A stretch of 64,000 nt of DNA, taken from positions 211,763-275,762 of the forward strand of contig JALHDB010000001.1 of the NCBI GenBank assembly GCA_022840825.1. The letters run 5' to 3'. The translations under genes and the position numbers were made by a program. The notes beneath the pieces are model-generated. The model searched no databases. It saw only the letters and a program-made list of their open reading frames with translations, and was not told the origin of the DNA. Below, piece after piece: positions 1-16,235 of this stretch; within the stretch, counting starts at the first letter, position 1, and each line of letters begins with the position of its first letter. The stretch comes from Negativicutes bacterium (GTDB lineage Bacteria > Bacillota > Negativicutes > JALHDB01).

Positions 1-255
1 TTTATTATACATTTAACATGAAATAATGACAATTATATAAAGATGGTGACGGCGTAGAATGCCAAAAGAACGAAGTCCTAATTTTGCTATCAGCGCTAAA
101 TTTGTAAAACCAGCTGCCTAAAGAAGTCATGAACCTGGATTTTATCGCTGTAAAATATTATAATATATATAAACATGAGTTTGAAAAAATCGATAAAGTA
201 ATGATCATTTGTTTAAGGTCGGTACTCATGTATATCGGTAAGACTAGGTAAGTAG

Positions 256-471
256 GTGATTTTGATGTTGGAAAAGCTGTTTAAACTAACCGATAAAAAT
301 GCCAAGGTGGTACTTAATTCAGGTGAGAGTTTCATCTGTGTGCCGTTGCAGTATCTGGAGGAAGAATACGAATCTTTTCTGGTAAGGGTGTCTGAAACCT
401 CAGGCATGTATAGCCAAGGTTCCCTAGTTGAGCTTGAAGAGTCGCAAATTAAATCTGTTGTTCAAGTATAA
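256..471 (+). CDS. hypothetical small protein (71 aa)
   Basis: ORF with an AGGTGA-like RBS upstream, followed by a hairpin and T-run. No recognisable family. Confidence 0.3.
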   Translation: MILMLEKLFKLTDKNAKVVLNSGESFICVPLQYLEEEYESFLVRVSETSGMYSQGSLVELEESQIKSVVQV

Positions 472-526
472 AGGCGCTTAAGTTATTACATAAAGCGCTT
501 TTATATTTTTAATTTTCGTCAAATTA

Positions 527-550
527 AACACTCTCAAGAGTGTTATTTTT
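527..550 (+). terminator. rho-independent terminator-like hairpin
   Basis: aacactc-tcaa-gagtgtt stem followed by attttt, just downstream of the 256..471 ORF. Confidence 0.4.
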
Positions 551-777
551 ATGCCCAAAACGCAGTGACCGGCCTTAAAAACTTGCTGCGGAAAAAGGCG
601 ACGGCTTAAAAATGGAGGTAAGGAAATGGACGGCGATGCCACCAATGAACGCTCCGCCAGGTAATCAGCAACAACGGGGAGGTCTAAATAAAAATAGTGA
701 ATACCGGCCGTAAATCCGCCAATGAGCACGGCTACATATCCAGTTTACACGAATAGGATAATATGGAGGTGAAATAA

Positions 778-1341
778 ATGATAAAAGGTATCGATGTATC
801 TGTGCATAACGGAATGATAGATTGGCAAGCCGTGGCTGCTGCCGGTATTGAATTTGCCATAATTCGTTGCTCCTATGGTCTCCAATCTAAAGATGCAATG
901 TTTGCTCAAAACATCGCCGGGGCAAAAGCGGCCGGTCTGCAAGTCGGCGCATATCATTATTCCTATGCCCTGAGTGTAGAAGATACAATCCAGGAAGCAG
1001 CCAACTGCCGGGAGGCGATTGAGACAGCGGGGATAGCACTTGATCTTCCTGTGTTCTTCGACATGGAAGACGCGGACGGATACAAATCACGAAATGGTTT
1101 TTCCTTTGATCCTGCAGAAATTACGGCTATGTGTCAGGCTTTTATTGAAAATGTCGGCATTGACTGTGGTATTTATGCTTCTTACTATTGGCTGACTGAT
1201 TATATAGACTGGCGCAGCATAGGTTGTGCAGTTTGGAATGCGCAGTGGGGACCGAATGACGATATCCAAGGATATATCTGGCAGTATACTGATTCCCTAG
1301 AAATCGGCGGGCAATTGTTTGACGGAAATATTAAATATTAG
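778..1341 (+). CDS. GH25 family muramidase (lysozyme, phage endolysin-like), catalytic domain only
   Basis: N-terminal GIDVSxHNGxIDW and IEFAIIRxSYG motifs typical of glycoside hydrolase family 25. Strong GGAGGTGA RBS. Confidence 0.85.
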   Translation: MIKGIDVSVHNGMIDWQAVAAAGIEFAIIRCSYGLQSKDAMFAQNIAGAKAAGLQVGAYHYSYALSVEDTIQEAANCREAIETAGIALDLPVFFDMEDADGYKSRNGFSFDPAEITAMCQAFIENVGIDCGIYASYYWLTDYIDWRSIGCAVWNAQWGPNDDIQGYIWQYTDSLEIGGQLFDGNIKY

Positions 1342-1346
1342 GAGGA

Positions 1347-1535
1347 ATGAACATGGATTGGTTGATTAAAAAGTTAAAGGCAGTAAGCAATTCCCTGGCT
1401 GGAAAAGCCGAGTATTTAGAGAAACTGGATGCCGAAACCAAGGCCAAGATTAATGCCGATACCAAGCGGGCCTTTTGGCTTGGAGTTGGTAGTCTGGCCA
1501 TCATTGAGGGAGTTTTATACCTGGTGGTGAGGTAG
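1347..1535 (+). CDS. small tail-anchored membrane protein (62 aa), possible holin-like lysis accessory
   Basis: Starts 5 nt after the endolysin stop with a GGAGGAA RBS. Amphipathic N-terminus and a single C-terminal TM (FWLGVGSLAIIEGVLYLVV). Confidence 0.45.
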   Translation: MNMDWLIKKLKAVSNSLAGKAEYLEKLDAETKAKINADTKRAFWLGVGSLAIIEGVLYLVVR

Positions 1536-1545
1536 GTGTTATTGA

Positions 1546-1974
1546 TTGGTTCAAAAAATATTGTCATTATTATTGTGTTGTTTTTTATTGCTATTGCCGG
1601 TTGGTACGTGTTCGGCCCAGACCTATCAAGTGACCGATCCGGAATTGACGAGGCTCGAACAAATATTCAATCAGCTAGCGAGCAACAATCAAAGGCTGCT
1701 GAACGAATTAAGTCAGTCGAAACAGGACTTGACGATAGCGCGGCAAAAGCTGGCCGAATATCAACAGGACTTGCAGGCACTGCAGCGGCAATTGCTAACG
1801 TTGAAACAAGAATCGATTCAGGCCAAAACGGAGCTCAGTCAAGCGCAGAGCTCATTGCAGAAGGCCAATCGATCCTTGCAAGAATACGAAAAAGAAATCA
1901 ATTCTAAAATGAAGAAAATGAAACTGCAACAAGCGATATGTGTGCTTGCTGCAGTCATACTGGCTGTTAGATAG
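1546..1974 (+). CDS. secreted/lipoprotein-like coiled-coil protein with C-terminal TM (142 aa), unimolecular-spanin-like architecture
   Basis: TTG start preceded by a GGTGAGGT RBS. N-terminal signal/lipobox-like LLPVGTCSAQ and Q/L-rich heptad repeats. C-terminal TM (ICVLAAVILAV). The stop is immediately followed by a terminator. An alternative frame, 1536..1907, is also open. Confidence 0.5.
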   Translation: MVQKILSLLLCCFLLLLPVGTCSAQTYQVTDPELTRLEQIFNQLASNNQRLLNELSQSKQDLTIARQKLAEYQQDLQALQRQLLTLKQESIQAKTELSQAQSSLQKANRSLQEYEKEINSKMKKMKLQQAICVLAAVILAVR

Positions 1975-1985
1975 CTCCTTAGGTT

Positions 1986-2022
1986 GCCGCTCTGTCCTTC
2001 GGGATGGGGCGGCTTTTTTGTT
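1986..2022 (+). terminator. rho-independent terminator
   Basis: GC-rich hairpin gccgc...ttcg...gcggc followed by a tttttt run. Confidence 0.7.
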
Positions 2023-2051
2023 TATTTCACTTAGACAATAGTCTCATTAAG

Positions 2052-2669
2052 TTACAATTTTCGGTTAGGCTGAAGTGGAAGATGAATTGATATTGCTTCA
2101 CCAGCTTCAAACAATGCTTTGTCAACTGCAGTTAATCCAACATCTTTGCTTCTTATTGATACCCATGAAACGACTCTGTCATCAAGAAAAACCGACTCTT
2201 GATCATTTGCTGCCTTGGCTGTAATGATATTGCTGTAAATAGTTTGCTTAGTATAGATATCAAATATTTTAACTGTCATGGAAGCTGAGAATTTTTTCCC
2301 ATATCTAAATAGAGCGACCTGTTCTTTTCTATTAAAGGGATGTAGTTCTAAATATACGGCATAATCAATTTCATCATTCGCAAAAACGTTTATTATTTCT
2401 TTATCTGCTGATTTCGAAGTGGCAAGAGTTGCCATTATTTTATAATATTTTTGATGATTAATTACTTTATAAAGTCCGTCTACTTTTCTATGAAGAAAAT
2501 TTGTAATATGTTCATTTAGAACATCATCGAAAGCGCTTTTGGAGTTATTAATAAAAACTAAAGTGACAGTCGCTTTTTCACGTTCTTGTGCATTTGTGAC
2601 ACTTAATGCGCAAATAACATTAAAACTGATTATTAGAGCTATTATAATCCTTAAAACCATAGTAATCAC
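2052..2669 (-). CDS. secreted protein of unknown function, paralog A (205 aa)
   Basis: N-terminal signal peptide. Shares conserved blocks with the adjacent gene (FINNSKSAFDD, DYAVYLELHPFNRKE). Local GC ~30%. Confidence 0.7.
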   Translation of the reverse strand: MITMVLRIIIALIISFNVICALSVTNAQEREKATVTLVFINNSKSAFDDVLNEHITNFLHRKVDGLYKVINHQKYYKIMATLATSKSADKEIINVFANDEIDYAVYLELHPFNRKEQVALFRYGKKFSASMTVKIFDIYTKQTIYSNIITAKAANDQESVFLDDRVVSWVSIRSKDVGLTAVDKALFEAGEAISIHLPLQPNRKL

Positions 2670-2672
2670 TCA

Positions 2673-3284
2673 CTAATCTTTTTTTTCAGGCTTTTTTAAA
2701 GGTAAACGAACTTTTATAACTGAATTCATTTTTTCAAGTGCTTTATTCAATGCTTTTAAAGATACAGATTTATTGCCTATGCCACCGAGCATAGTTGAAT
2801 CAGAAGCAAACTCAGTAAACTTACCGTTATACAAATATTTATTTTTTGAAAGATCAATTATTTTTAATGGTATAATAGCAGTCATATCAATACCATACGT
2901 AAAGAAGGTTTGTCTCTCTTTCCTAATAAAAGGTTGAAGTTCACAAAAAAGAACATAATCAACATTTTCACCTTTAAATACATCAATAATATCGGATCTC
3001 TCAGCTGTTGCAATATCAACTATACCTGATTTATTTAATAACTCTATATAGCGGGTTCCAGGTATAATATTATAATTCTTTTTCAATAAACTATCAAAAT
3101 TATCCATTATTGTTTTGTTAATTTCATCATCATAGGTAGTTTTCGCATTATTAATATATAATAATGCTACATTTGGCTGGTTCTCTTTACTTGAAGAAAA
3201 TTCAAAAGCATGTGCATTCGGGATGAAAGTTACAGAAAATAATATAGCTGTAACTATGAAAAGCATTAATATTTTTTTCATCAT
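2673..3284 (-). CDS. secreted protein of unknown function, paralog B (203 aa)
   Basis: Signal peptide with AHA cleavage site. Paralogous blocks YINNAKTTYDD and DYVLFCELQPFIRKE. Strong GGGGGG RBS. AT-rich. Confidence 0.7.
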   Translation of the reverse strand: MMKKILMLFIVTAILFSVTFIPNAHAFEFSSSKENQPNVALLYINNAKTTYDDEINKTIMDNFDSLLKKNYNIIPGTRYIELLNKSGIVDIATAERSDIIDVFKGENVDYVLFCELQPFIRKERQTFFTYGIDMTAIIPLKIIDLSKNKYLYNGKFTEFASDSTMLGGIGNKSVSLKALNKALEKMNSVIKVRLPLKKPEKKD

Positions 3285-3462
3285 AGTCCCCCCTAATAAT
3301 TTTAGTGAAAAAAAAGTAAATTACATACTAAATTTTTCCTTTTTAAATAATACCATAAATATCAAATAATTACAAAAATAAAATATTATCCCCCGCTTTG
3401 GCAGGGCTTATTTTTTTACACCAATTACCAACGGGTTTAATACTTGCTTTTCTCCTATAGGC

Positions 3463-3665
3463 ATGTGTGGATAAGTTTTTATTCGGGTAATCGTAGAGCA
3501 TGATGAAGATGGCAATATCCGTCCACTGTCGTTGAAATGGACAGATGGCCGAATTTTGCAATTGATCGGATTTTAGACGTACGCCAGGCTGTAGCTTTAA
3601 GGCTGAACACACGTGCTTTGAGTTTATAGCAAAATGCAAATTTGTGGTATAATGAAACATAGAGT
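3463..3665 (+). pseudogene. degraded paralog of the small dinB-downstream gene (21858..22088); premature stop and frameshift
   Basis: Translation VFIRVIVEHDEDGNIRPLSLKWTDGR aligns with KIFVKVTAEHNTDGQIRPLIITWTDGR of the intact gene. Shared nucleotide strings ATCCGTCCACTG and AATTTTGCAATTGATCG. TAA at codon 4 and a 1-nt deletion. Confidence 0.6.
3624..3653 (+). promoter_or_regulatory. candidate sigma-A promoter with extended -10 (TGGTATAAT)
   Basis: tgg-tataat at 3645..3653, about 35 nt upstream of the RBS/start of 3691..4089. Confidence 0.4.
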
Positions 3666-3690
3666 TGGAACTGAAAGAAGGAGATAGAGT

Positions 3691-4089
3691 ATGAAATTTA
3701 AGCCTTTAGTTGTTTGTTTACTTGTAGTTGCATCTCTATTTGTAGGAATAGCTTCTGCATTTGCAGCAAATTGGATATATGTAGGGCATACGAAAAATGG
3801 ATATTCGTGGTATGTGGATGGCAACACATCTAAGAGAATCGGTAATACTGTTGTTTTTTGGCAGTTGATTGTTTGGGATACGCCTAGTAAAAGTGGCGTG
3901 AAGAAAGGTATGATTAAAATAAAAGCTACATTGTCTAACCCTCGTACAAGGCAGACTCTAGAAACATATGCATATGATTCCAATAATAAAGAGATTACTC
4001 ATAATCTTCATCCTGGGGAAATTAATCGGGTTTCTCCAGGCTCAATAAATGATAACTGTATTGATATTGCTCTTAAATATGCAAAATAA
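3691..4089 (+). CDS. small secreted protein of unknown function (132 aa)
   Basis: GGAG RBS, signal peptide with ASAFA cleavage site, terminator downstream. Confidence 0.6.
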   Translation: MKFKPLVVCLLVVASLFVGIASAFAANWIYVGHTKNGYSWYVDGNTSKRIGNTVVFWQLIVWDTPSKSGVKKGMIKIKATLSNPRTRQTLETYAYDSNNKEITHNLHPGEINRVSPGSINDNCIDIALKYAK

Positions 4090-4127
4090 AATAGAAATAT
4101 TTGTAATGGCGGCGGGATATGATGTAT

Positions 4128-4160
4128 AAAACACGGTATAGACTTGTGCCGTGTTTTTGT
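4128..4160 (+). terminator. rho-independent terminator
   Basis: acacgg...ccgtgt hairpin followed by ttttt. Confidence 0.6.
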
Positions 4161-4200
4161 ACATATGAGTTTAGTCATATTCTTCGAATAATACAGATAA

Positions 4201-4420
4201 TCATATGAAGGCAATGAAATAACTTTGATTGATGTTTTGGGGACAGCTCCGGACGAAGTCGCTGAAAAGGTTGAAAGTCAATGTGAACAAGAAAGGCTAA
4301 GCCTGCATATTAATTGCTTAAGCAGACGGGAAAAATGGGTATTGGAGATGAGATTTGGTATTCCGGATGGTCACAAGTACGGATGATTAGAGAGGTGAAA
4401 TAAAGCTGTAGCAATATTGA
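4201..4420 (+). pseudogene. 3' fragment of a SigK/SigE-like sporulation sigma-70 factor gene (region 3 to 4.1; region 4.2 decayed)
   Basis: An in-frame TAA at 4198 is followed by EGNEITLIDVLGT...LSRREKWVLEMRFGI, a sigma region 3/4.1 signature. Premature stop at 4384. A +2 frame retains a weak SRIEKRA-like remnant. Confidence 0.7.
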
Positions 4421-4484
4421 ATATTTTCTTGTCTTGCGACATACCACCGGTAGAGCTTGCTGACAAAATAAGGGGAGTAGCATA

Positions 4485-5372
4485 ATGGACAAAATTACGG
4501 TAATGGCTAACCGGGCAAGAGCGGCTTTTAATGCGAAGCAGGCCAAGTTGCCTCGCGAGATTGTTCCTGTAGGTTCTTTTTCTCAGCGTATTTTAACGAC
4601 CTTTGCTGGCAGCACCTCTATAATAATATATCGCCCACATACAGCAAAGGAAGAATTTCTACCCGTTTTTGTCAATATTCACGGTGGTGGGTTCGTTATG
4701 GGTAGCGCATGTGATGATGACGTATGGTGCAGAAAAATTGCAAATATCGTGGGTTGTGTTGTTATCAATATCGATTACCACCTTGCTCCAGAGCAGAAGT
4801 TTCCAGTAGCACTGGAAGAGTGCTACTATGTTATCAAATGGATATATACTAATGCATTAGAGTTAAATATTGATCCTAATCGCATAGCCGTTGGCGGGCA
4901 TAGTGCCGGTGGTAATCTGGCGGCGTCATTATGCCTGCTGTCAAGGGATAGGGGGGAATTTCCGATAGTGTATCAGGTACTGAACTATCCTCCACTAGAC
5001 TTGTCTATCGACCCATTCAATCGTCCATCGACAGATAGCTTACTGACACCAAAGGCACAAGACTTTTTCAATTCTTGTTATTTTAACACTGCAGCGGATG
5101 CTCTTAACCCCCTAGTTTCTCCTTTACTAGCTGCAGACTTGTCCGAATTACCGGACGCCCTAATCATTACGGCAGAATATGACCCCTTAAGACAGGATGG
5201 AAAAGTATATGCCGAACGTTTAGCAGAAGCCGGTGTTGAGGTTACGTATAGAATGTTCCCGGGATGTATGCATGCGTTCACTCATTTTAGTTCACATAAG
5301 ATGTCTAAAGAGGCCTGGGCGTTGATATATTCTCAACTAAAGAGAGCTTTTGGGGTAGGGAAAAACAATTGA
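4485..5372 (+). CDS. alpha/beta hydrolase fold-3 esterase/lipase (HSL family)
   Basis: HGGGF oxyanion motif, GHSAGG nucleophile elbow, C-terminal His region. Confidence 0.85.
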   Translation: MDKITVMANRARAAFNAKQAKLPREIVPVGSFSQRILTTFAGSTSIIIYRPHTAKEEFLPVFVNIHGGGFVMGSACDDDVWCRKIANIVGCVVINIDYHLAPEQKFPVALEECYYVIKWIYTNALELNIDPNRIAVGGHSAGGNLAASLCLLSRDRGEFPIVYQVLNYPPLDLSIDPFNRPSTDSLLTPKAQDFFNSCYFNTAADALNPLVSPLLAADLSELPDALIITAEYDPLRQDGKVYAERLAEAGVEVTYRMFPGCMHAFTHFSSHKMSKEAWALIYSQLKRAFGVGKNN

Positions 5373-5441
5373 AATTAATACTGCGTCTGATTTTATTAAT
5401 ATCAGAATAGTGGACATACTAGCTGTAAAGGAGGGTTATAA

Positions 5442-5702
5442 TTGACTAGTATGGTTTGGATGTTAATCATAGGGGCAGTTGCAGGATGGTTGGCAGGAAA
5501 TTTAGTAAGAGGACATGGATTTGGATTATGGATAGATATGATTGTTGGGGTAATTGGTGCATTTATCGGTAATTTTTTATTTTCAATGGTAGGAATAGGA
5601 ACATTTGGGGTAATTGGAAGTTTCATATCAAGTTTGGTCGGAGCGGTAATATTTGTTTATATAATTAGGATGTTTAGTAATAAATCGACCGGAAATAAAT
5701 GA
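5442..5702 (+). CDS. GlsB/YeaQ/YmgE family transglycosylase-associated membrane protein
   Basis: Gly-rich three-TM small protein (AGWLAG...GIIGAFIG) typical of this family. Confidence 0.85.
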   Translation: MTSMVWMLIIGAVAGWLAGNLVRGHGFGLWIDMIVGVIGAFIGNFLFSMVGIGTFGVIGSFISSLVGAVIFVYIIRMFSNKSTGNK

Positions 5703-5802
5703 AATAAAAAGGTGTAATTGGTATTAACGCCAGAGGATTTGAACAAATCGCCAGCGATACCCTCGGTACAAAACAGAATACTATAAACATAGTATATATA
5801 AT

Positions 5803-5848
5803 AATCCTTCCTGTCATGGAAATGACATGAAGGATTATTGGCATTTTA
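5803..5848 (+). terminator. terminator-like hairpin
   Basis: 15-nt arms aatccttcctgtcat / atgacatgaaggatt (one mismatch) followed by a T-rich tract. Confidence 0.5.
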
Positions 5849-6270
5849 TGGGGAATTTTTTTTAAGAAGTATTTCGTTTGACATTATAAACAGATATTGA
5901 ATAAGTAATATATTTGGGGGAGAGCAGTCCCAAATTACCGGATAAAGGCGTAATAAAATGGGTAATATTAGCACTAGGTGTTAGGGATTATATCAGAATG
6001 TGCCTGCTGAAGAAAAGTTGCCAGCAGTGGCTATCCTATACTATTGACATTACGGAATCTTGAATAAGAGGTACGAGTGGGCGATGATCTGAATCTTCAC
6101 TAAATTATGCAGGGCTACGTTTATGATTTTACGATAGGTAAAATGGTAATTGGTTTGATGATACGGCACAGGCGTTATATAATCAGGATTAGAGAAGGAT
6201 AGCTGGGGCAATCCAGGAGTAGATTGACTCGGTATAGGTATGGACTTGCTTAACAAAGGAGAGCTGTTTT

Positions 6271-7737
6271 TTGACGTTCAAAATTTCCGTGGTATTAACT
6301 GTAATGGTTGTTTTAGTAGGAGCAATTTTTCCTACGGTTTTAGCAAAAATGGCCCAAAATATGTTTGAAGGAATTATCGCTAGTTTCGGTTGGTTTTACT
6401 TATGGGTTACCTTAGGTTTCTTAGTATTTTCGCTTTATTTGGCCTTTGGTCCGTATGGAAAAATTCGTCTGGGACATGACGAAGACAGACCCGAATATAC
6501 CAATCTTACTTGGTTTGCTATGTTATTTAGCGCAGGTATGGGTATAGGCCTGGTATTCTGGGGTGTGGCTGAACCGATGTTTCATTATATAAGTCCGCCG
6601 ATGGGACTAGAAGGTAGAAGCGCGGAAGCTGCCAGGGTGGCGTTACGCTATGCTTTTTTTCACTGGGGACTTCATCCTTGGGGGATTTATAGTATAATGG
6701 CTCTGGCTCTTGCGTACTTTAACTTCCGAAAAAACAGCAAAAATCTTATCAGTGCTACGTTTACCCCGCTTATTGGCCGCGCAACAGAAGGTATTCTGGG
6801 TAAATCAATTGATGTGTTTACAATCATTGCTACTGTTTTCGGGGTGGCAACTTCCTTAGGATTGGGTGCTTTGCAGGTTAATAGCGGTTTGAGCAGTATG
6901 TTTGGGTTACCTGGTAGTGTAATGATGCAGATTATCATTATTGCCTGTGTAACTGTGTTATACATTCTTTCGGCTTCGACCGGCTTAGATAAAGGAATTA
7001 AGATATTAAGTAATGTAAATATAGTTTTGGCTATCACATTGATGCTATTCGTATTAGTAGTAGGACCAACCTCATTTATATTGGATGTTTTTACACTCAC
7101 TTTTGGCGAATATGTTCAAAACCTGCTTTATATGAGTCTGCGCATGAGTCCGTTTACGCAAGGCAGTTGGATGAGTCAGTGGACATTGTTTTATTGGGCT
7201 TGGTGGATTGCATGGGCACCATTTGTCGGTTCCTTTATAGCACGTATCTCACGGGGACGCACAATTCGGGGATTTATTTTAGGTGTTCTGATTGCACCCA
7301 GTATTTTTGGCTTTTTCTGGTTCTCCATATTTGGCGGAACAGCTTTAAATCTGGAAATATTTCGTGGCTACTCTATCGGTGAAGCTGTGCAGTCAGATAT
7401 GGCATCAGCGTTGTTTGCCACTTTGGAATATTTGCCTCTCGGAAAAGCTGTAGCGTTATTATCGTTGTTATTGATTATAAGTTTTTTTATTACTTCCGCC
7501 GATTCTGCTACTTTTGTGTTAGGTATGTTTTCCACTGACGGAAATCCAAACCCCAGTGCGGGCATAAAATTGACGTGGGGGATATTGCAATCTTCAATTG
7601 CTACGGTACTTCTTGTAAGTGGCGGGCTCATGGGATTGCAACAGGCTTCAATCATTGCATCTTTGCCTTTTTCGGTCATAATGATCTTTATGTGCATTTC
7701 ACTTTGGAAGTCGTTAAGGAATGAAAAATTCAAATAA
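6271..7737 (+). CDS. BCCT family betaine/carnitine/choline transporter
   Basis: 488 aa, 12-TM. BCCT signature WxxFAMLFSAGMGIGLVFWGVAEP. Confidence 0.9.
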   Translation: MTFKISVVLTVMVVLVGAIFPTVLAKMAQNMFEGIIASFGWFYLWVTLGFLVFSLYLAFGPYGKIRLGHDEDRPEYTNLTWFAMLFSAGMGIGLVFWGVAEPMFHYISPPMGLEGRSAEAARVALRYAFFHWGLHPWGIYSIMALALAYFNFRKNSKNLISATFTPLIGRATEGILGKSIDVFTIIATVFGVATSLGLGALQVNSGLSSMFGLPGSVMMQIIIIACVTVLYILSASTGLDKGIKILSNVNIVLAITLMLFVLVVGPTSFILDVFTLTFGEYVQNLLYMSLRMSPFTQGSWMSQWTLFYWAWWIAWAPFVGSFIARISRGRTIRGFILGVLIAPSIFGFFWFSIFGGTALNLEIFRGYSIGEAVQSDMASALFATLEYLPLGKAVALLSLLLIISFFITSADSATFVLGMFSTDGNPNPSAGIKLTWGILQSSIATVLLVSGGLMGLQQASIIASLPFSVIMIFMCISLWKSLRNEKFK

Positions 7738-7812
7738 ATTTAATATTGGGCGGTTAGTTTTATGCTGTGCAAAAAGCAGCCTCGCCTTGCAATATGGCTG
7801 AGACTTCGGTAT

Positions 7813-9456
7813 TTATAGGTGATCCTCCGCAACTGTTTTGTGAGCTATGCTGGCAGCATGATCGCCTATGCGTTCAAGATTGCTGGCTATATCGACAAAA
7901 AGGATTCCCGCATCACTGGTGCAGACTCTTTCATTCATTCGCTTAATGTGAGTATTACGCAAATCACGTTCCATTTGGTCAATAATCTTTTCTTTTTCAA
8001 AAACCGTTGAGGCCAGTTCTACATTATTAGTAAAGAAAGCTTGAAGCGCTTTTTTAAATGTTTCGTTAGTTAATTCGAACATTTCGTTCAATTCAATGAT
8101 CGCCTCATCGGAGAACGATACATTGTTTATTGTCCGATCCTCAAGTAACTCAACAATGTTTTCCATATGATCTCCTACACGCTCAATATCACGAATAGTA
8201 TCCATAAGTTGATTGTGTTCTTTTGATTCATAAGGGCTAAGCGATTTGGTGGATATAGTCACTAAATATTCAGTAATTACTTTATCCAGTTGATTAATTG
8301 CTTGTTCGTACTGAAGAGCAAGTGAAGCATGCTTCTGTTCTTTGTTATTTAAAAACAGAAACGCTTCATTAACAGCATCTGCAGCAAATTCGCCCATGCG
8401 TTTTACCTCATTTTTTGCTTGTCCTAAAGCAATGTTTGGGGATTGTTCGATTACGGTAGTACTTAAATGTTGTAATTGTATATTAAGCAGTCTATCTTCT
8501 CCGGGAATTATTTTGGTTACAAGCCAAGCAATTGCAGCAATAAACGGAAATTGAATAATCGTATTGGTTACATTAAAAATGCCGTGAGCAAACGCAATCG
8601 TCATCTCAGGATTTAAGTTCAAGGATGACTGCAAATATGCAATAAAATTGGTAAATGGCCCTAAGACAAGTAAAAAAATAACCGTTCCGAGTAGATTGAA
8701 CAATACGTGAACAACTGCTACTCTTTTTGCCGAAATCGAAGTGCCGATTGCGGCTAAAATAGCAGTAATTGTCGTTCCAATATTATCTCCAAACAATACA
8801 GGTAGTGCTGCACGCAGGTTAAGAGCACCCTGCGCAAATAACTCTTGCAGTATTCCAATGGTTGCGCTAGAACTCTGAACAATAATTGTGAATATAGTAC
8901 CTACAAGCACACTAAGTATTGCATTATCACTCATACTAACTGTAATTTGTTGAAATTCATCTAAAGAACGAAGGGGTTTCATTCCTGAACTCATTAGTTC
9001 TAAGCCGAAGAATAATGTGCCAAAGCCAAATATAATTTGGCCGAGGGCATTTATTTTTTTGCTCTTGAAGAAAAATAGCAAGATGGAGCCGGTCGCAATG
9101 ATTGGTAAAGCATATTCACCGATATCAATCCCGATAATGAAGGATGTAACAGTTGTTCCGATGTTTGCTCCCATAATGACGCCAATAGCTTGATGAAACG
9201 TCATGAATCCCGCACTCACTAATGCTACAGTCAGTGCAGTTGTGCCAGAACTTGATTGAATTAAGGCCGTAATAAAAATTCCTGCTAATACTCCCATAAA
9301 GGGATTTGTTGTAAAGCGGTCTAAGATGGCTCTTAATCTTCCACCGGCCGCAGCCTTAAGACCTTCCCCCATATATTTAATGCCAAATAAAAAGATACCG
9401 AGGCCGCCAACGAACTCAAATATCATGGTCTGTAGATCAAAGTTCAACACGAGCAA
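7813..9456 (-). CDS. Na/Pi cotransporter family protein with C-terminal PhoU-like domains
   Basis: N-terminal Na/Pi cotransporter repeats (QSSSGTTALTV, GANIGTT). C-terminal PhoU-like helical domain. Confidence 0.9.
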   Translation of the reverse strand: MLVLNFDLQTMIFEFVGGLGIFLFGIKYMGEGLKAAAGGRLRAILDRFTTNPFMGVLAGIFITALIQSSSGTTALTVALVSAGFMTFHQAIGVIMGANIGTTVTSFIIGIDIGEYALPIIATGSILLFFFKSKKINALGQIIFGFGTLFFGLELMSSGMKPLRSLDEFQQITVSMSDNAILSVLVGTIFTIIVQSSSATIGILQELFAQGALNLRAALPVLFGDNIGTTITAILAAIGTSISAKRVAVVHVLFNLLGTVIFLLVLGPFTNFIAYLQSSLNLNPEMTIAFAHGIFNVTNTIIQFPFIAAIAWLVTKIIPGEDRLLNIQLQHLSTTVIEQSPNIALGQAKNEVKRMGEFAADAVNEAFLFLNNKEQKHASLALQYEQAINQLDKVITEYLVTISTKSLSPYESKEHNQLMDTIRDIERVGDHMENIVELLEDRTINNVSFSDEAIIELNEMFELTNETFKKALQAFFTNNVELASTVFEKEKIIDQMERDLRNTHIKRMNERVCTSDAGILFVDIASNLERIGDHAASIAHKTVAEDHL

Positions 9457-9549
9457 CTCCTTTAGATTTATCCAGATGATGATAGTAGGGTAATAATCTT
9501 TCCTGCATCGGAAAACATGCCGGTAGATGATGCTGGTTATGTTAAGCGG

Positions 9550-9810
9550 CTAGTCTAGATCATCCATACCATAGGTGTTATTTCGATTATGGTTTCGGAT
9601 GAAATTTTCTTTGCTAGTTGCTTCTTGGGTAGCTGGTGATTTATTTACTTCAATACTGGGGATAGTACCCGGAACAGGTTGGGATTTATCTATACCTTTC
9701 ATCCACGGCGCGAGTAATATATAGCTCGTGACAGCCCCTGCAATCAAAACAATAGCTAGAATTACACCAAGCCACTTATGAAGTTTAGAAATTTGTTGAT
9801 AATATTTCAC
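9550..9810 (-). CDS. small single-TM membrane protein (86 aa)
   Basis: GTG start with a GGAGG RBS 6 nt upstream. One TM helix. Confidence 0.45.
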   Translation of the reverse strand: MKYYQQISKLHKWLGVILAIVLIAGAVTSYILLAPWMKGIDKSQPVPGTIPSIEVNKSPATQEATSKENFIRNHNRNNTYGMDDLD

Positions 9811-13924: not shown

Positions 13925-14194
13925 CTAAAAAGTGCGGTTTCTGATCCATTCCCAAGCTTTGTCGGTCAGCCAGCCATTATAATCTTTCGTTACTCGGATA
14001 ACCAATAATGTATCGTCGGTATCAATATGAGGCTTAAGTTTGTTGAATATTGCAGCAGCATCTTCCTGAGTATCGATTAACCATGACGAAGTTAATTGGT
14101 GCCACCAAGTCTCATATGACTTTATGGCGCCATATAATTCTTCGTAGTTTTTATCTTTTTTGTTTAAGTCATAACTAATCATATAAACAGCCAA
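13925..14194 (-). CDS. hypothetical Trp-rich small protein (89 aa)
   Basis: GGAAAGGA RBS. Predicted beta-alpha-beta-beta-alpha-beta pattern. Confidence 0.5.
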   Translation of the reverse strand: MAVYMISYDLNKKDKNYEELYGAIKSYETWWHQLTSSWLIDTQEDAAAIFNKLKPHIDTDDTLLVIRVTKDYNGWLTDKAWEWIRNRTF

Positions 14195-14420
14195 AATATC
14201 ACGTCCTTTCTATGACGGATTTCGACCTGACAAAGATATTTCCTGTAATCGATTAGCAAAAATGGTTGAAATAATTATCGGAAACGAGCAGTACTAACAA
14301 GGAAAAAATGTAGCCTGCTCATTTAGGCTGTACTCGATCATACATAAAGTCGGGTAGATAAACAGAACAATAGAAAAGGAAAGAACGGGGCAGTTTCAAA
14401 ATTGGGGTGGTAGAATAATA

Positions 14421-15326
14421 ATGAATGAAGAAGTTAGAAACAAAAGAGCAAAAGAAGTAACTTGGGCCGGTTTTTGGCTAAACATAGTTTTAACGGTACT
14501 CAAGATTTTCGCCGGCATTCAGGGGAAAAGTGCGGCAATGCTTGCGGATGGAATACATTCATTGTCGGATTTTATTACGGATATCGTTATTTTGATTGGA
14601 TTTCAGTTTACGGCAAAACCAGCAGATGAAAGCCATAACTACGGTCATGGTAAATTTGAGACATTTGCAACAGTAATTATCGGATTAGCGTTAATATTTG
14701 CCGGCTACGGTATTTTTAAGTCAGGTGCGCAGAATATATATGCGGTTTTTGTGCAAGGCGTTACATTGGAAAAGCCTGGTATGATTTCGCTTGTAGCAGC
14801 GGTCATATCAATTGTTGGAAAGGAATGGCTATTTAGATACACGAGAAACGTTGGTATAGAAATAAACTCACCGGCTGTCATCGCTAATGGCTGGCATCAT
14901 CGCTCAGATGTTTTTTCTTCTTTTGGGACCTTAATTGGTATTGGTGGTGCAATTTTTCTAGGATCTAATTGGACAATTCTCGACCCGATCGCATCTATTG
15001 TGGTTAGCTTTTTCATTTTTAAGGTGGCTTTAGAAATATTGGCTCCAGCCTTTAGTGAATTAATGGAGACATCTTTAGGAGCGGATGACATTGATTTTAT
15101 TGAATCGACGATAGCGCAGCATCCTGAGGTAGTAAGTTCGCATAAACTTCGTACCCGCCGAATTGGTTCTAAAGCTGCTATCGAAGTGCATATCGAAGTT
15201 GATCCTAATTTGACCGTAAAGATTGCCCATATGATAGCGACCGAAATTGAAATGACGCTGCATGAGCATTTTGGTGAAGCAGTGTTTATAACTACTCACA
15301 TTGAACCTGCTCCCGACAGAGTATGA
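14421..15326 (+). CDS. cation diffusion facilitator (CDF) family metal efflux transporter
   Basis: CDF N-terminal TM motifs (LADGIHSLSDF, HGHGKFE). C-terminal cytoplasmic domain. Confidence 0.9.
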   Translation: MNEEVRNKRAKEVTWAGFWLNIVLTVLKIFAGIQGKSAAMLADGIHSLSDFITDIVILIGFQFTAKPADESHNYGHGKFETFATVIIGLALIFAGYGIFKSGAQNIYAVFVQGVTLEKPGMISLVAAVISIVGKEWLFRYTRNVGIEINSPAVIANGWHHRSDVFSSFGTLIGIGGAIFLGSNWTILDPIASIVVSFFIFKVALEILAPAFSELMETSLGADDIDFIESTIAQHPEVVSSHKLRTRRIGSKAAIEVHIEVDPNLTVKIAHMIATEIEMTLHEHFGEAVFITTHIEPAPDRV

Positions 15327-15554
15327 CGAATAAGACAGACGTCTCTTTTGATGACAAGTTGATGACAAGGGGACGTTCCTTTTTTGTCATAGAATAGTTA
15401 AAATGACTAAGTAGAAGCAACAGGTTATTGCAGGATTTTCAGAGCTTTATGGGAATATATGGTTTACAAGTATTATGTCGGCTGCGGCTGAGATGGGATG
15501 TTGTGAAGTATTGCGGTATGGTGGTCATTTGTTACTAAGAAAGGAGAATATATT

Positions 15555-16235
15555 ATGATTTCAAGTAATGAGATCAAGGCTAGGGTGATCCAGTTAGGGG
15601 CAGATATTTGCGGATTTGCTGGCGTGGATCGTTTTGTTGATGCACCCCAAGGATTTCATCCTAAGGATATTATGAAGGAATGTAAAACAGTTATTGTATT
15701 TGCTGCCCGTTTTCCTGCTAATACACTTTCAGCGTCTACCCAATCACCATATACCTTTGTTCGTCACAAAATGGTTGATAAACTGGATACCATTACTTTT
15801 CAGCTTACTTCGGAACTGGAATCGGCAGGTGTCGGCGCAATTCCTATACCGTCTTCCGAACCTTATGATTACTGGGACAGTGAGCGACGGCACGGTCAGG
15901 GAATTTTATCATTGAAGCATGCCGCAGTACGAGCCGGCTTAGGAAAAATGGGAAAGAATACGCTTTTGATTAACGAACACTTTGGTAATATGCTTTGGCT
16001 GGGAGCTGTACTGACAGATTTAGAACTGGAATCGGATCATATGGCCGATTATGAGGCTTGTATTCCCGGTTGTCAGCTTTGTATTGATTCTTGTCCAGGG
16101 CAAGCCCTCGATGGTACCACGATTATTCAGCAGGCCTGTCGTAGTCATTCTACTAAATTTACCGAAGGTGGCGGAGTAGTACTGTTATGCAACCTGTGCC
16201 GCAAAATATGTCCGCGCCGACAAGGTATCAGATAA
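15555..16235 (+). CDS. 4Fe-4S dicluster domain protein (epoxyqueuosine-reductase-like N-terminal fold)
   Basis: Two CxxCxxCxxxCP motifs (CIPGCQLCIDSCP, CNLCRKICP). Confidence 0.6.
   Translation: MISSNEIKARVIQLGADICGFAGVDRFVDAPQGFHPKDIMKECKTVIVFAARFPANTLSASTQSPYTFVRHKMVDKLDTITFQLTSELESAGVGAIPIPSSEPYDYWDSERRHGQGILSLKHAAVRAGLGKMGKNTLLINEHFGNMLWLGAVLTDLELESDHMADYEACIPGCQLCIDSCPGQALDGTTIIQQACRSHSTKFTEGGGVVLLCNLCRKICPRRQGIR

Follow-up and report, generated by a model that had tools for sequence, protein, structure and literature searches.

Analysis of a 64,000-nucleotide stretch of DNA from a Negativicutes bacterium (contig JALHDB010000001.1 of assembly GCA_022840825.1, positions 211,763 to 275,762; referred to below as the window) revealed two neighboring genes, here called A and B, that encode a pair of related exported proteins. 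The original prediction for this locus, made from the sequence alone, had described two adjacent minus-strand genes for paralogous secreted proteins with signal peptides, lying in a low-GC islet. Both open reading frames (ORFs) were recovered (Table 1). Public annotation of two metagenome-assembled genome (MAG) assemblies that contain this same sequence places the translation starts at position 3281 for A and 2660 for B, which yields 202 amino acids (aa) each. The start of A at 3281 is the second ATG and is the better fit to the ribosome-binding site AGGGGGG at 3288-3294. Comparison of the two proteins by BLASTP revealed 30% identity over 210 columns, covering their whole length (E value, 1e-25), and the blocks that had been proposed as shared lie inside this alignment. 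Judged by the alignment, the paralogy of A and B is far above chance level. Chance ORFs in AT-rich DNA were ruled out by the homologs, the confident structural models, and the paralogy E value.

Signal peptides, which were assigned by sequence inspection and not by a predictor, are present on both proteins, with a basic N terminus, a hydrophobic core, and an A-x-A or small-x-small cleavage site (AHA↓F in A and TNA↓Q in B). The signal regions were modeled as a helix followed by a linker. A lipobox is absent from the sequences of both A and B. Each mature protein has a mass of about 20 kDa and an isoelectric point of about 8.7. The export signal stands as predicted. Since the host, a diderm Firmicute, has two membranes, the most likely destination of these "secreted" proteins is the periplasm or the outer membrane.

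Table 1. Features at the A/B locus (window coordinates)
Feature	Coordinates	Strand	Description
Gene A	2673..3284	-	Exported protein, 202-203 aa; conserved paralog type; likely start ATG 3281; signal peptide end AHA↓F
Gene B	2052..2669	-	Exported protein, 202-205 aa; fast-evolving paralog type; likely start ATG 2660
Sigma-70-like promoter candidate	3347..3375	-	Upstream of gene A: TTGTAA, 17-nucleotide spacer, TATTAT, TG before -10; consensus match only
GC-rich hairpin	1986..2013	+	Between convergent lysis cassette and gene B; T-run on + strand only
Phage lysis cassette remnant	778..1974	+	Endolysin 778-1341, holin-like 62 aa 1347-1535, spanin-like coiled-coil 1546-1974 (or overlapping frame 1536-1907)
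Adhesin_E-like (PF16747) exported protein	3691..4089	+	132 aa; divergent from gene A; Pfam 29.5 bits versus cutoff 23.7, E value 9.7e-7
Orphan sigK internal-to-3' part (sigma region 3-4)	4207..4378	+	attR-like direct repeat, right boundary of islet; internal deletion

The base composition of the pair was compared with that of its surroundings in sliding windows. The low-GC islet (27 to 32% GC) was confirmed, with window values of 25 to 31% over approximately 2200-3400 and 40 to 47% in the flanking genes. The GC content at third codon positions (GC3) is 0.19 and 0.21 in the two genes (z, -3.3 to -3.8, relative to 0.38 ± 0.05 for 50 further ORFs in the window), and therefore codon usage deviates, not merely amino acid composition. 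Across the family to which A and B belong, GC3 follows that of the host in most other genomes; it is below the mean of the neighboring genes in 30 of 37 loci, and only about a dozen of these 37 lie more than 2 standard deviations under that mean. The term "foreign" therefore holds for this copy and not for the whole family.

Neither A nor B matched an entry of Pfam, NCBIfam, PHROGs, or PADLOC at the curated cutoffs, and no match was significant. A word-seeded search with gene A revealed 127 homologs with 40 to 76% identity, all of which are unnamed or annotated as hypothetical and carry no precomputed Pfam domain; wherever the source organism is named, it belongs to the Negativicutes. The same search from B recovered B alone, and a third search with a broad alignment gave no further named relatives. 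When 1.84 billion representative proteins were searched exhaustively with a profile, only 201 clusters were found at an E value of ≤1e-3, with lengths of 60 to 314 aa (most 170 to 250 aa), and a single 90% cluster comprises 1,814 member sequences from ENA metagenomes. A hydrophobic N terminus was found in 219 of 236 full-length members. Because a lipobox-like motif occurs in just 2 of these 236, identity of the family as lipoproteins was ruled out. A scan of one genome per GTDB species gave 48 loci, whose titles almost all name Negativicutes, Selenomonadales, Acidaminococcaceae, Phascolarctobacterium, Succiniclasticum, Pelosinus, Anaerovibrio, Selenomonas, or Schwartzia; a few MAGs among them bear implausible names. 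The scan used strict peptide patterns, and absence from other taxa (e.g., named Veillonella) is therefore not established by it. As far as its sequences indicate, the family is small and unnamed, and its named members are confined to the Negativicutes, i.e., to diderm Firmicutes. Neither Pfam nor NCBIfam has a model for it, which leaves a gap in annotation.

The pair structure was followed across these loci. About half of them carry a tandem of A followed by B, namely those of Sporomusales-like MAGs and of Phascolarctobacterium/Acidaminococcaceae, and the flanks of these tandems are unrelated from locus to locus. In most Selenomonadales loci, A is solitary. The stop codon of A overlaps the start of the longest B ORF by 4 nucleotides (nt) in at least six loci, an arrangement consistent with translational coupling. 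In a neighbor-joining tree, A and the single-copy sequences form one clade, and B-type sequences fall outside it on long branches. Recent tandem duplication was ruled out by this position of B. The tree suggests that the duplication is older than the divergence of the carrier lineages; since it was built without support values, this old duplication is suggestive and not firm. Ortholog identities of 51 to 67% for A versus 26 to 46% for B suggest that B evolves much faster than A. The A-type sequences cluster broadly by order, with exceptions: the Selenomonadales are split into two clades, and one MAG has two loci, which indicates some paralogy or lateral transfer.

All neighbor ORFs of the 48 nonredundant loci were clustered, and nothing recurred beyond generic ABC ATPases and response regulators. 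The genomic context therefore yields no pathway, and guilt by association fails. In four Acidaminococcaceae/Phascolarctobacterium loci (L027, 151-699; L028, 7272-7817; L029, 7243-7785; and L032, 7197-7775), an exported protein of 180 to 192 aa is encoded immediately upstream of A and B, as if in a three-gene operon. This protein, which gave no Pfam match, bears at its C terminus a hydrophobic segment resembling a glycine zipper. Loci at which the pair adjoins genes for S-adenosylmethionine (AdoMet) decarboxylase and spermidine synthase include that of Phascolarctobacterium faecium DSM 14760, and one database protein (P0111) holds an AdoMet_dc domain and an A domain in one chain.

Structural models of A and B were generated with AlphaFold2 from the family alignments and had a predicted local distance difference test (pLDDT) score of 87.2 and a predicted template modeling (pTM) score of 0.77 for A and of 89.9 and 0.78, respectively, for B. 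The order of elements is common to both proteins: the signal helix, a strand, a helix, a strand, two helices, two strands, a beta-hairpin of 15 to 17 residues, and a C-terminal helix. Gene B has an insertion after the long beta-hairpin. The models confidently predict, for each mature protein, an alpha/beta fold of the LptE type combined with an elongated beta-hairpin of the CT253/HpaA type. Comparison of the models with known structures revealed a fold shared with CT253 and, as in HpaA, a globular domain with an apical beta-hairpin extension (Table 2). The best matches, CT253 and HpaA, span about 145 residues and LptE about 115. The description of the pair as belonging to an unknown family thus holds for the sequences, which match nothing named, and not for the modeled fold, which is that of CT253/HpaA and of LptE, PelC, CsgG, and the N-terminal domain of TolB.

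Table 2. Structural matches of the A/B models (two figures per known protein)
Known protein	Figure 1	Figure 2
CT253 (Chlamydia trachomatis)	11.3	12.5
HpaA (Helicobacter pylori)	11.2	11.6
HP0410, HP0492 (PDB 3bgh, 2i9i)	10.6, 10.5	11.0, 10.7
Cj1090c	9.8	10.1
PelC	9.3	10.2
CsgG	9.0	10.1
TolB N-terminal domain	8.9	10.4
LptE	8.5	9.0
TraT	8.3	9.1
PqiC	7.4	7.8
GNA1162	7.3	8.4
LpoB	6.2	9.1

Profile searches for the same relatives gave traces at most. The hidden Markov model (HMM) of the CT253 family (NF041726) matched B over nearly its full length with 21 bits (E value, 2e-4) versus a cutoff of 125 bits; it gave no match to A and matched only 2 of 37 family members at an E value of ≤0.1. The GNA1162-like HMM (PF05643) was sub-threshold in 3 of 37 members (best E value, 6.6e-4), and its gathering threshold was not reached. 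The HpaA model (PF05211) matched neither A nor B at an E value of ≤1 and none of the 37 members at ≤0.1. When two family alignments were run as profiles against PDB sequences, the first gave 0 matches and the second a single one, to HpaA, at an E value of 0.46 and over the last helix only. For LptE, there was neither a Pfam or NCBIfam family match nor a lipobox. Distant family members have a first strand of the "VAILPIVDNS" type, which we presume to be a motif of CsgG/LpoB-type families.

CT253 (NF041726; PDB 6uxc) resembles A and B in its size and in being an exported envelope protein; it differs in sequence (9 to 17% identity to A and B), belongs to another phylum, and contrasts with A and B in their lack of a lipobox. 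No established function of CT253 was found in the literature. The HpaA/neuraminyllactose-binding hemagglutinin proteins (PF05211; PDB 8t8d, 3bgh, and 2i9i) are lipoproteins, and neither A nor B matches their Pfam model. Sequence variation is found at the apex of HpaA, a region that is conserved in A. The HpaA family has been described as exclusive to Helicobacteraceae (PMC10936181). LptE, PelC, CsgG, TolB-N, LpoB, GNA1162, PqiC, and TraT share one alpha/beta fold with the pair and are periplasmic and proximal to the outer membrane; however, just 110 to 125 residues, approximately, align with A and B, and none of the partner genes of these proteins (lptD, pelB, csgEF, tolA/pal, and mrcB) is linked to the pair. 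Ring structures are indicated by PDB entry titles for PelC (dodecamer) and TraT (decamer), and CsgG forms a nonameric ring. To our knowledge, all of these LptE-type relatives except TolB are lipoproteins, whereas the A/B family is nonlipidated. For Negativicutes, no Lol pathway, no evidence for lipoproteins targeted to the outer membrane, and no LptE have been reported (PMC5491611, PMC13018214). Since the Lol pathway is reported to be missing, an anchorless version of the fold fits the lineage.

The surroundings of the pair in the window were analyzed for the lysis-gene remnants, the two pseudogenes, and the horizontal acquisition that the original prediction had proposed. The lysis genes were confirmed as a GH25 endolysin (Pfam Glyco_hydro_25, 4e-27; PHROG endolysin, 3.6e-34), a holin-like ORF, and a spanin-like ORF (PHROG Rz-like spanin, 2e-4). 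One pseudogene proved to be an orphan, internally deleted 3' part of the sporulation sigma factor gene sigK; the second was not identified. Contigs of two MAG assemblies reach further left and are essentially the same in sequence as the window. The orphan part is 99.4% identical to positions 5964-6135 of locus L002, which lie within a SigK homolog about 1.6 kb left of the window start. The SigK homolog has 57% identity to a manually entered Bacillus subtilis SigK sequence. The sigK sequences are located at 5890-6552 in L002, at 8744-9075 and 14797-14976 in L001, and, as the orphan part, at 4207-4378 in the window. They form a direct repeat of 171 to 172 nt with 99% identity and a spacing of 5964 nt, one copy of which lies inside sigK and the other of which is an orphan. 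Wherever an assembly covers its position, the repeat was seen: three times for the orphan copy (window, L001, and L002) and twice for the sigK-borne copy (L001 and L002). In L001, the repeat reaches the stop codon in both copies (translations ending in NMSADD and NMSTDD before the stop), and the orphan copy has a 73-nt tandem duplication; the orphan copy of the window has a larger deletion. The orphan copy is thus damaged in both assemblies that extend over its right-hand part. The L002 contig breaks off within the orphan copy, and the sigK gene of L002 lacks 36 nt of region 4.2, in frame.

The segment between the repeats holds, in order, a fragment of an ImmA-like metalloprotease (phrog_87, 1.4e-7), small zinc-ribbon and weakly XhlA-like ORFs, the lysis cassette, B, A, and the Adhesin_E-like protein. 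This element of about 6 kb has no integrase or structural genes. As read from the sequence, the layout is that of a temperate phage integrated at the 3' end of sigK with a replacement 3' end, which would later have been left without its integrase and middle part. The sigK pattern suggests phage integration at the 3' end of the gene and not an interruption of the skin type. The pair is in a cargo position between the lysis genes and attR. Since it lies, with the Adhesin_E-like gene, at the cargo end of a decayed prophage, this copy was acquired laterally. The proposal of horizontally acquired cargo is thus borne out for this genome by the sigK repeat, the lysis cassette, and the foreign GC3, and it does not extend to the family, which is generally not phage cargo. 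The flanking genes of the window are common to no other locus, and the assemblies that cover this locus belong to the same species only. The arrangement resembles that of prophage "moron" genes at the lysis/att end, such as lambda bor and lom, in that the pair lies between the lysis cassette and the att repeat, on the opposite strand, and with atypical composition. It differs in that only a remnant of about 6 kb is present here and the family is otherwise chromosomal and not found in sequenced phages. By itself, the local arrangement is an ordinary, common kind of prophage decay.

The Adhesin_E match of the gene next to A covers positions 1 to 106 of the 109 profile positions. The encoded protein has a signal peptide without a lipobox cysteine, and the gene has a GC3 of 0.23 (z = -2.9). 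Haemophilus protein E, by comparison, is a lipoprotein. An Adhesin_E-like gene was found beside the pair in no other locus. The promoter candidate upstream of A belongs to 17 consensus matches in the region versus 12.7 ± 3.4 in shuffled sequences, which is not clearly above the background. The terminator scan resolved the hairpin behind B as a 12-pair stem followed by TTTTTTGTTT; on the minus strand, this hairpin lies downstream of the gene B stop codon but lacks a T-run. A further short GC-rich hairpin, CCCTGCCAAAGCGGGG, is located at 3391-3406 on the minus strand, just upstream of the promoter-like site, in a stretch of about 400 nt without a convincing ORF or Rfam match. Rfam scans of positions 1 to 6500 and of the whole window revealed no RNA element.

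Positions 1536-1974 on the plus strand contain two almost fully overlapping ORFs after the holin-like gene. The 123-aa frame, which corresponds to the public call, has an N-terminal transmembrane segment and gives the weak Rz-like spanin match. In the 142-aa frame, a signal peptide is followed by a long coiled coil and by a transmembrane segment at the C terminus, a topology like that of unimolecular spanins. The GC contents at the three codon positions of the 142-aa frame (0.49/0.30/0.51) are close to those of the holin gene (0.48/0.33/0.54), unlike those of the 123-aa frame, so that the frame chosen in the public annotation may be the wrong one.

The occurrence of the family in mobile elements was analyzed in phage and plasmid collections. 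No family match was found among the 50,697 phage genomes of INPHARED or the 72,556 plasmids of PLSDB, and BFVD gave no convincing structural match. A phage-borne family was ruled out by these results. In IMG/VR, one contig of 2.9 million (L061) carries the family. This contig also encodes, at 1107-4261, 8265-9551, and 13946-15592, a homolog of Lamassu-like LmuB (PADLOC, 3e-13) with a 328-aa partner, an HSDR_N/type IIG-like nuclease, and, at the contig end, a large serine recombinase, so the surroundings of its pair look like a defense or mobile island by their gene content. Overall, the family is old and well conserved in the Negativicutes; most of its loci are ordinary chromosomal ones, and its members are not phage cargo in general.

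We interpret A and B as an anciently duplicated, cotranscribed pair of Sec-exported, nonlipidated proteins that would act as an accessory or scaffold of the envelope and that, in this genome, travel as prophage cargo. We give this interpretation as a whole an even chance of being correct. Once cleaved by signal peptidase I, both proteins would work jointly as periplasmic components, probably in a hetero-oligomer that sits either on peptidoglycan or against the inner face of the outer membrane. Protein A would be the conserved core subunit, whose invariant motifs, namely NNAKTTYD after strand 1, KYLYNGKF in the hairpin, and GNKS before the last helix, would mediate contact with a conserved partner or ligand in the envelope. 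The rapidly diverging B would serve as an adaptor subunit. Together, A and B would perform without a lipid anchor what their structural relatives in proteobacteria do as lipoproteins. We thus infer a periplasmic location close to the outer membrane or the peptidoglycan, cooperation of A and B, and an accessory or scaffold role.

Several observations weigh against this interpretation. The structural relatives have very different functions, and the fold alone therefore does not fix a mechanism. A occurs without B in about half of the loci, chiefly in Selenomonadales, and B must therefore be dispensable or replaced there. Neighbor gene families are not conserved across the loci, and in many other genomes the GC3 of the family equals that of the host. 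Finally, the three assemblies differ in detail around the sigK repeat, so that the exact att structure is uncertain; some of these differences may be assembly noise.

Four other functions were considered, all of which are weaker than the envelope accessory role. The pair and the Adhesin_E-like protein may be products of lysogenic conversion that alter or mask an outer membrane component and thereby act against superinfecting phages, conjugation, or host factors, by analogy with the outer membrane lipoproteins TraT, lambda Bor, T5 Llp, and phi80 Cor. The foreign composition of the pair agrees with such an exclusion function, as does its placement: it has its own promoter-like site, is encoded opposite to the lysis genes, and lies with the lysis cassette on one side and the att-like repeat on the other, a geometry that we take to match that of lambda bor next to Rz. 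The sole IMG/VR match, too, shares its island with a serine recombinase and with genes of LmuB-like and restriction-like type. Exclusion is nevertheless unlikely. A is 50 to 76% identical across Negativicutes orders, and exclusion proteins are usually less conserved; moreover, phage or defense neighbors are missing at most loci, there is no PADLOC or PHROG match, and none of the 50,697 phage genomes carries the family. A surface adhesin function like that of H. pylori HpaA, in which the conserved apical hairpin would bind a ligand on host or partner cells, is very improbable. The top structural matches include HpaA with its paralogs HP0410 and HP0492, whose elongated hairpin the pair shares, and a neighboring gene is Adhesin_E-like. 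In HpaA, the elongated hairpin mediates cell binding (PMC10936181). However, A and B have no lipid anchor, no surface route is known for a soluble periplasmic protein in Negativicutes, carriers come from soil, sediment, and rumen besides the gut, and the apical region is the variable part of HpaA but the most conserved part of A.

It is extremely unlikely that the family provides a nonlipidated LptE equivalent, i.e., the missing partner or plug of the lipopolysaccharide (LPS) translocon LptD. Its members are exported and, where named, found in Negativicutes only, and LptE was not found in Veillonella parvula or Acetonema longum (PMC5491611, PMC13018214). The LptD of A. longum, however, was reported to have 16 strands, not 26, and no plug (PMC13018214). 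In addition, none of the loci whose neighbors carry Pfam annotation showed an lptD close to the pair, no neighbor family is conserved, the family is patchy, at times multicopy, and mobile here, and CT253 and HpaA match better (about 145 residues) than LptE does (about 115 residues). A regulator or binder directed at peptidoglycan, either LpoB-like or tied to the polyamine-modified peptidoglycan that tethers OmpM, is quite unlikely. A few loci point in this direction: at L062 (8001-9266), a gene for a YkuD L,D-transpeptidase lies 52 nt downstream of a distant member (P0264; about 20% identical to A); at L004, a YkuD plus PG_binding gene lies about 4 kb upstream; and at the Phascolarctobacterium-type loci L007, L024, and L025 (approximately 5830-9280 in locus coordinates), the pair directly follows the genes for AdoMet decarboxylase and spermidine synthase. 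Because OmpM of Negativicutes is anchored by polyamine-modified peptidoglycan, the adjacency to polyamine genes may exceed coincidence. Such adjacencies nevertheless occur in a few loci only, none of them family-wide, and Pfam scans of A, B, and family members detected no peptidoglycan-binding motif.

The envelope accessory role of the A/B pair bears on a gap in the biology of its hosts. Diderm Firmicutes have an outer membrane with LPS, but neither the Lol pathway nor LptE, BamB-E, Pal, or Lpp is reported to be present in them (PMC5491611, PMC13018214). The A/B family is a candidate for the accessory roles thus left to be filled, as it is conserved, exported, anchorless, built on the accessory-lipoprotein fold, restricted to one lineage among its named members, and often present as a putatively coexpressed heteropair. 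Cultured carriers, such as P. faecium, exist. The family might be a lineage-specific, nonlipidated substitute for an outer membrane accessory lipoprotein that is absent from diderm Firmicutes, acting as a ring or adaptor with LptD, BamA/TamB, OmpM, or polyamine-modified peptidoglycan, to which we assign a distinctly low probability. If true, it would bear on how the outer membrane is serviced without Lol, and it would mean that phages can move envelope modules between Negativicutes. The local cargo case indicates that the module can be moved laterally. The main interest lies in the family itself, an unnamed, anchorless branch of the outer membrane accessory-lipoprotein fold that has so far come from diderm Firmicutes only.

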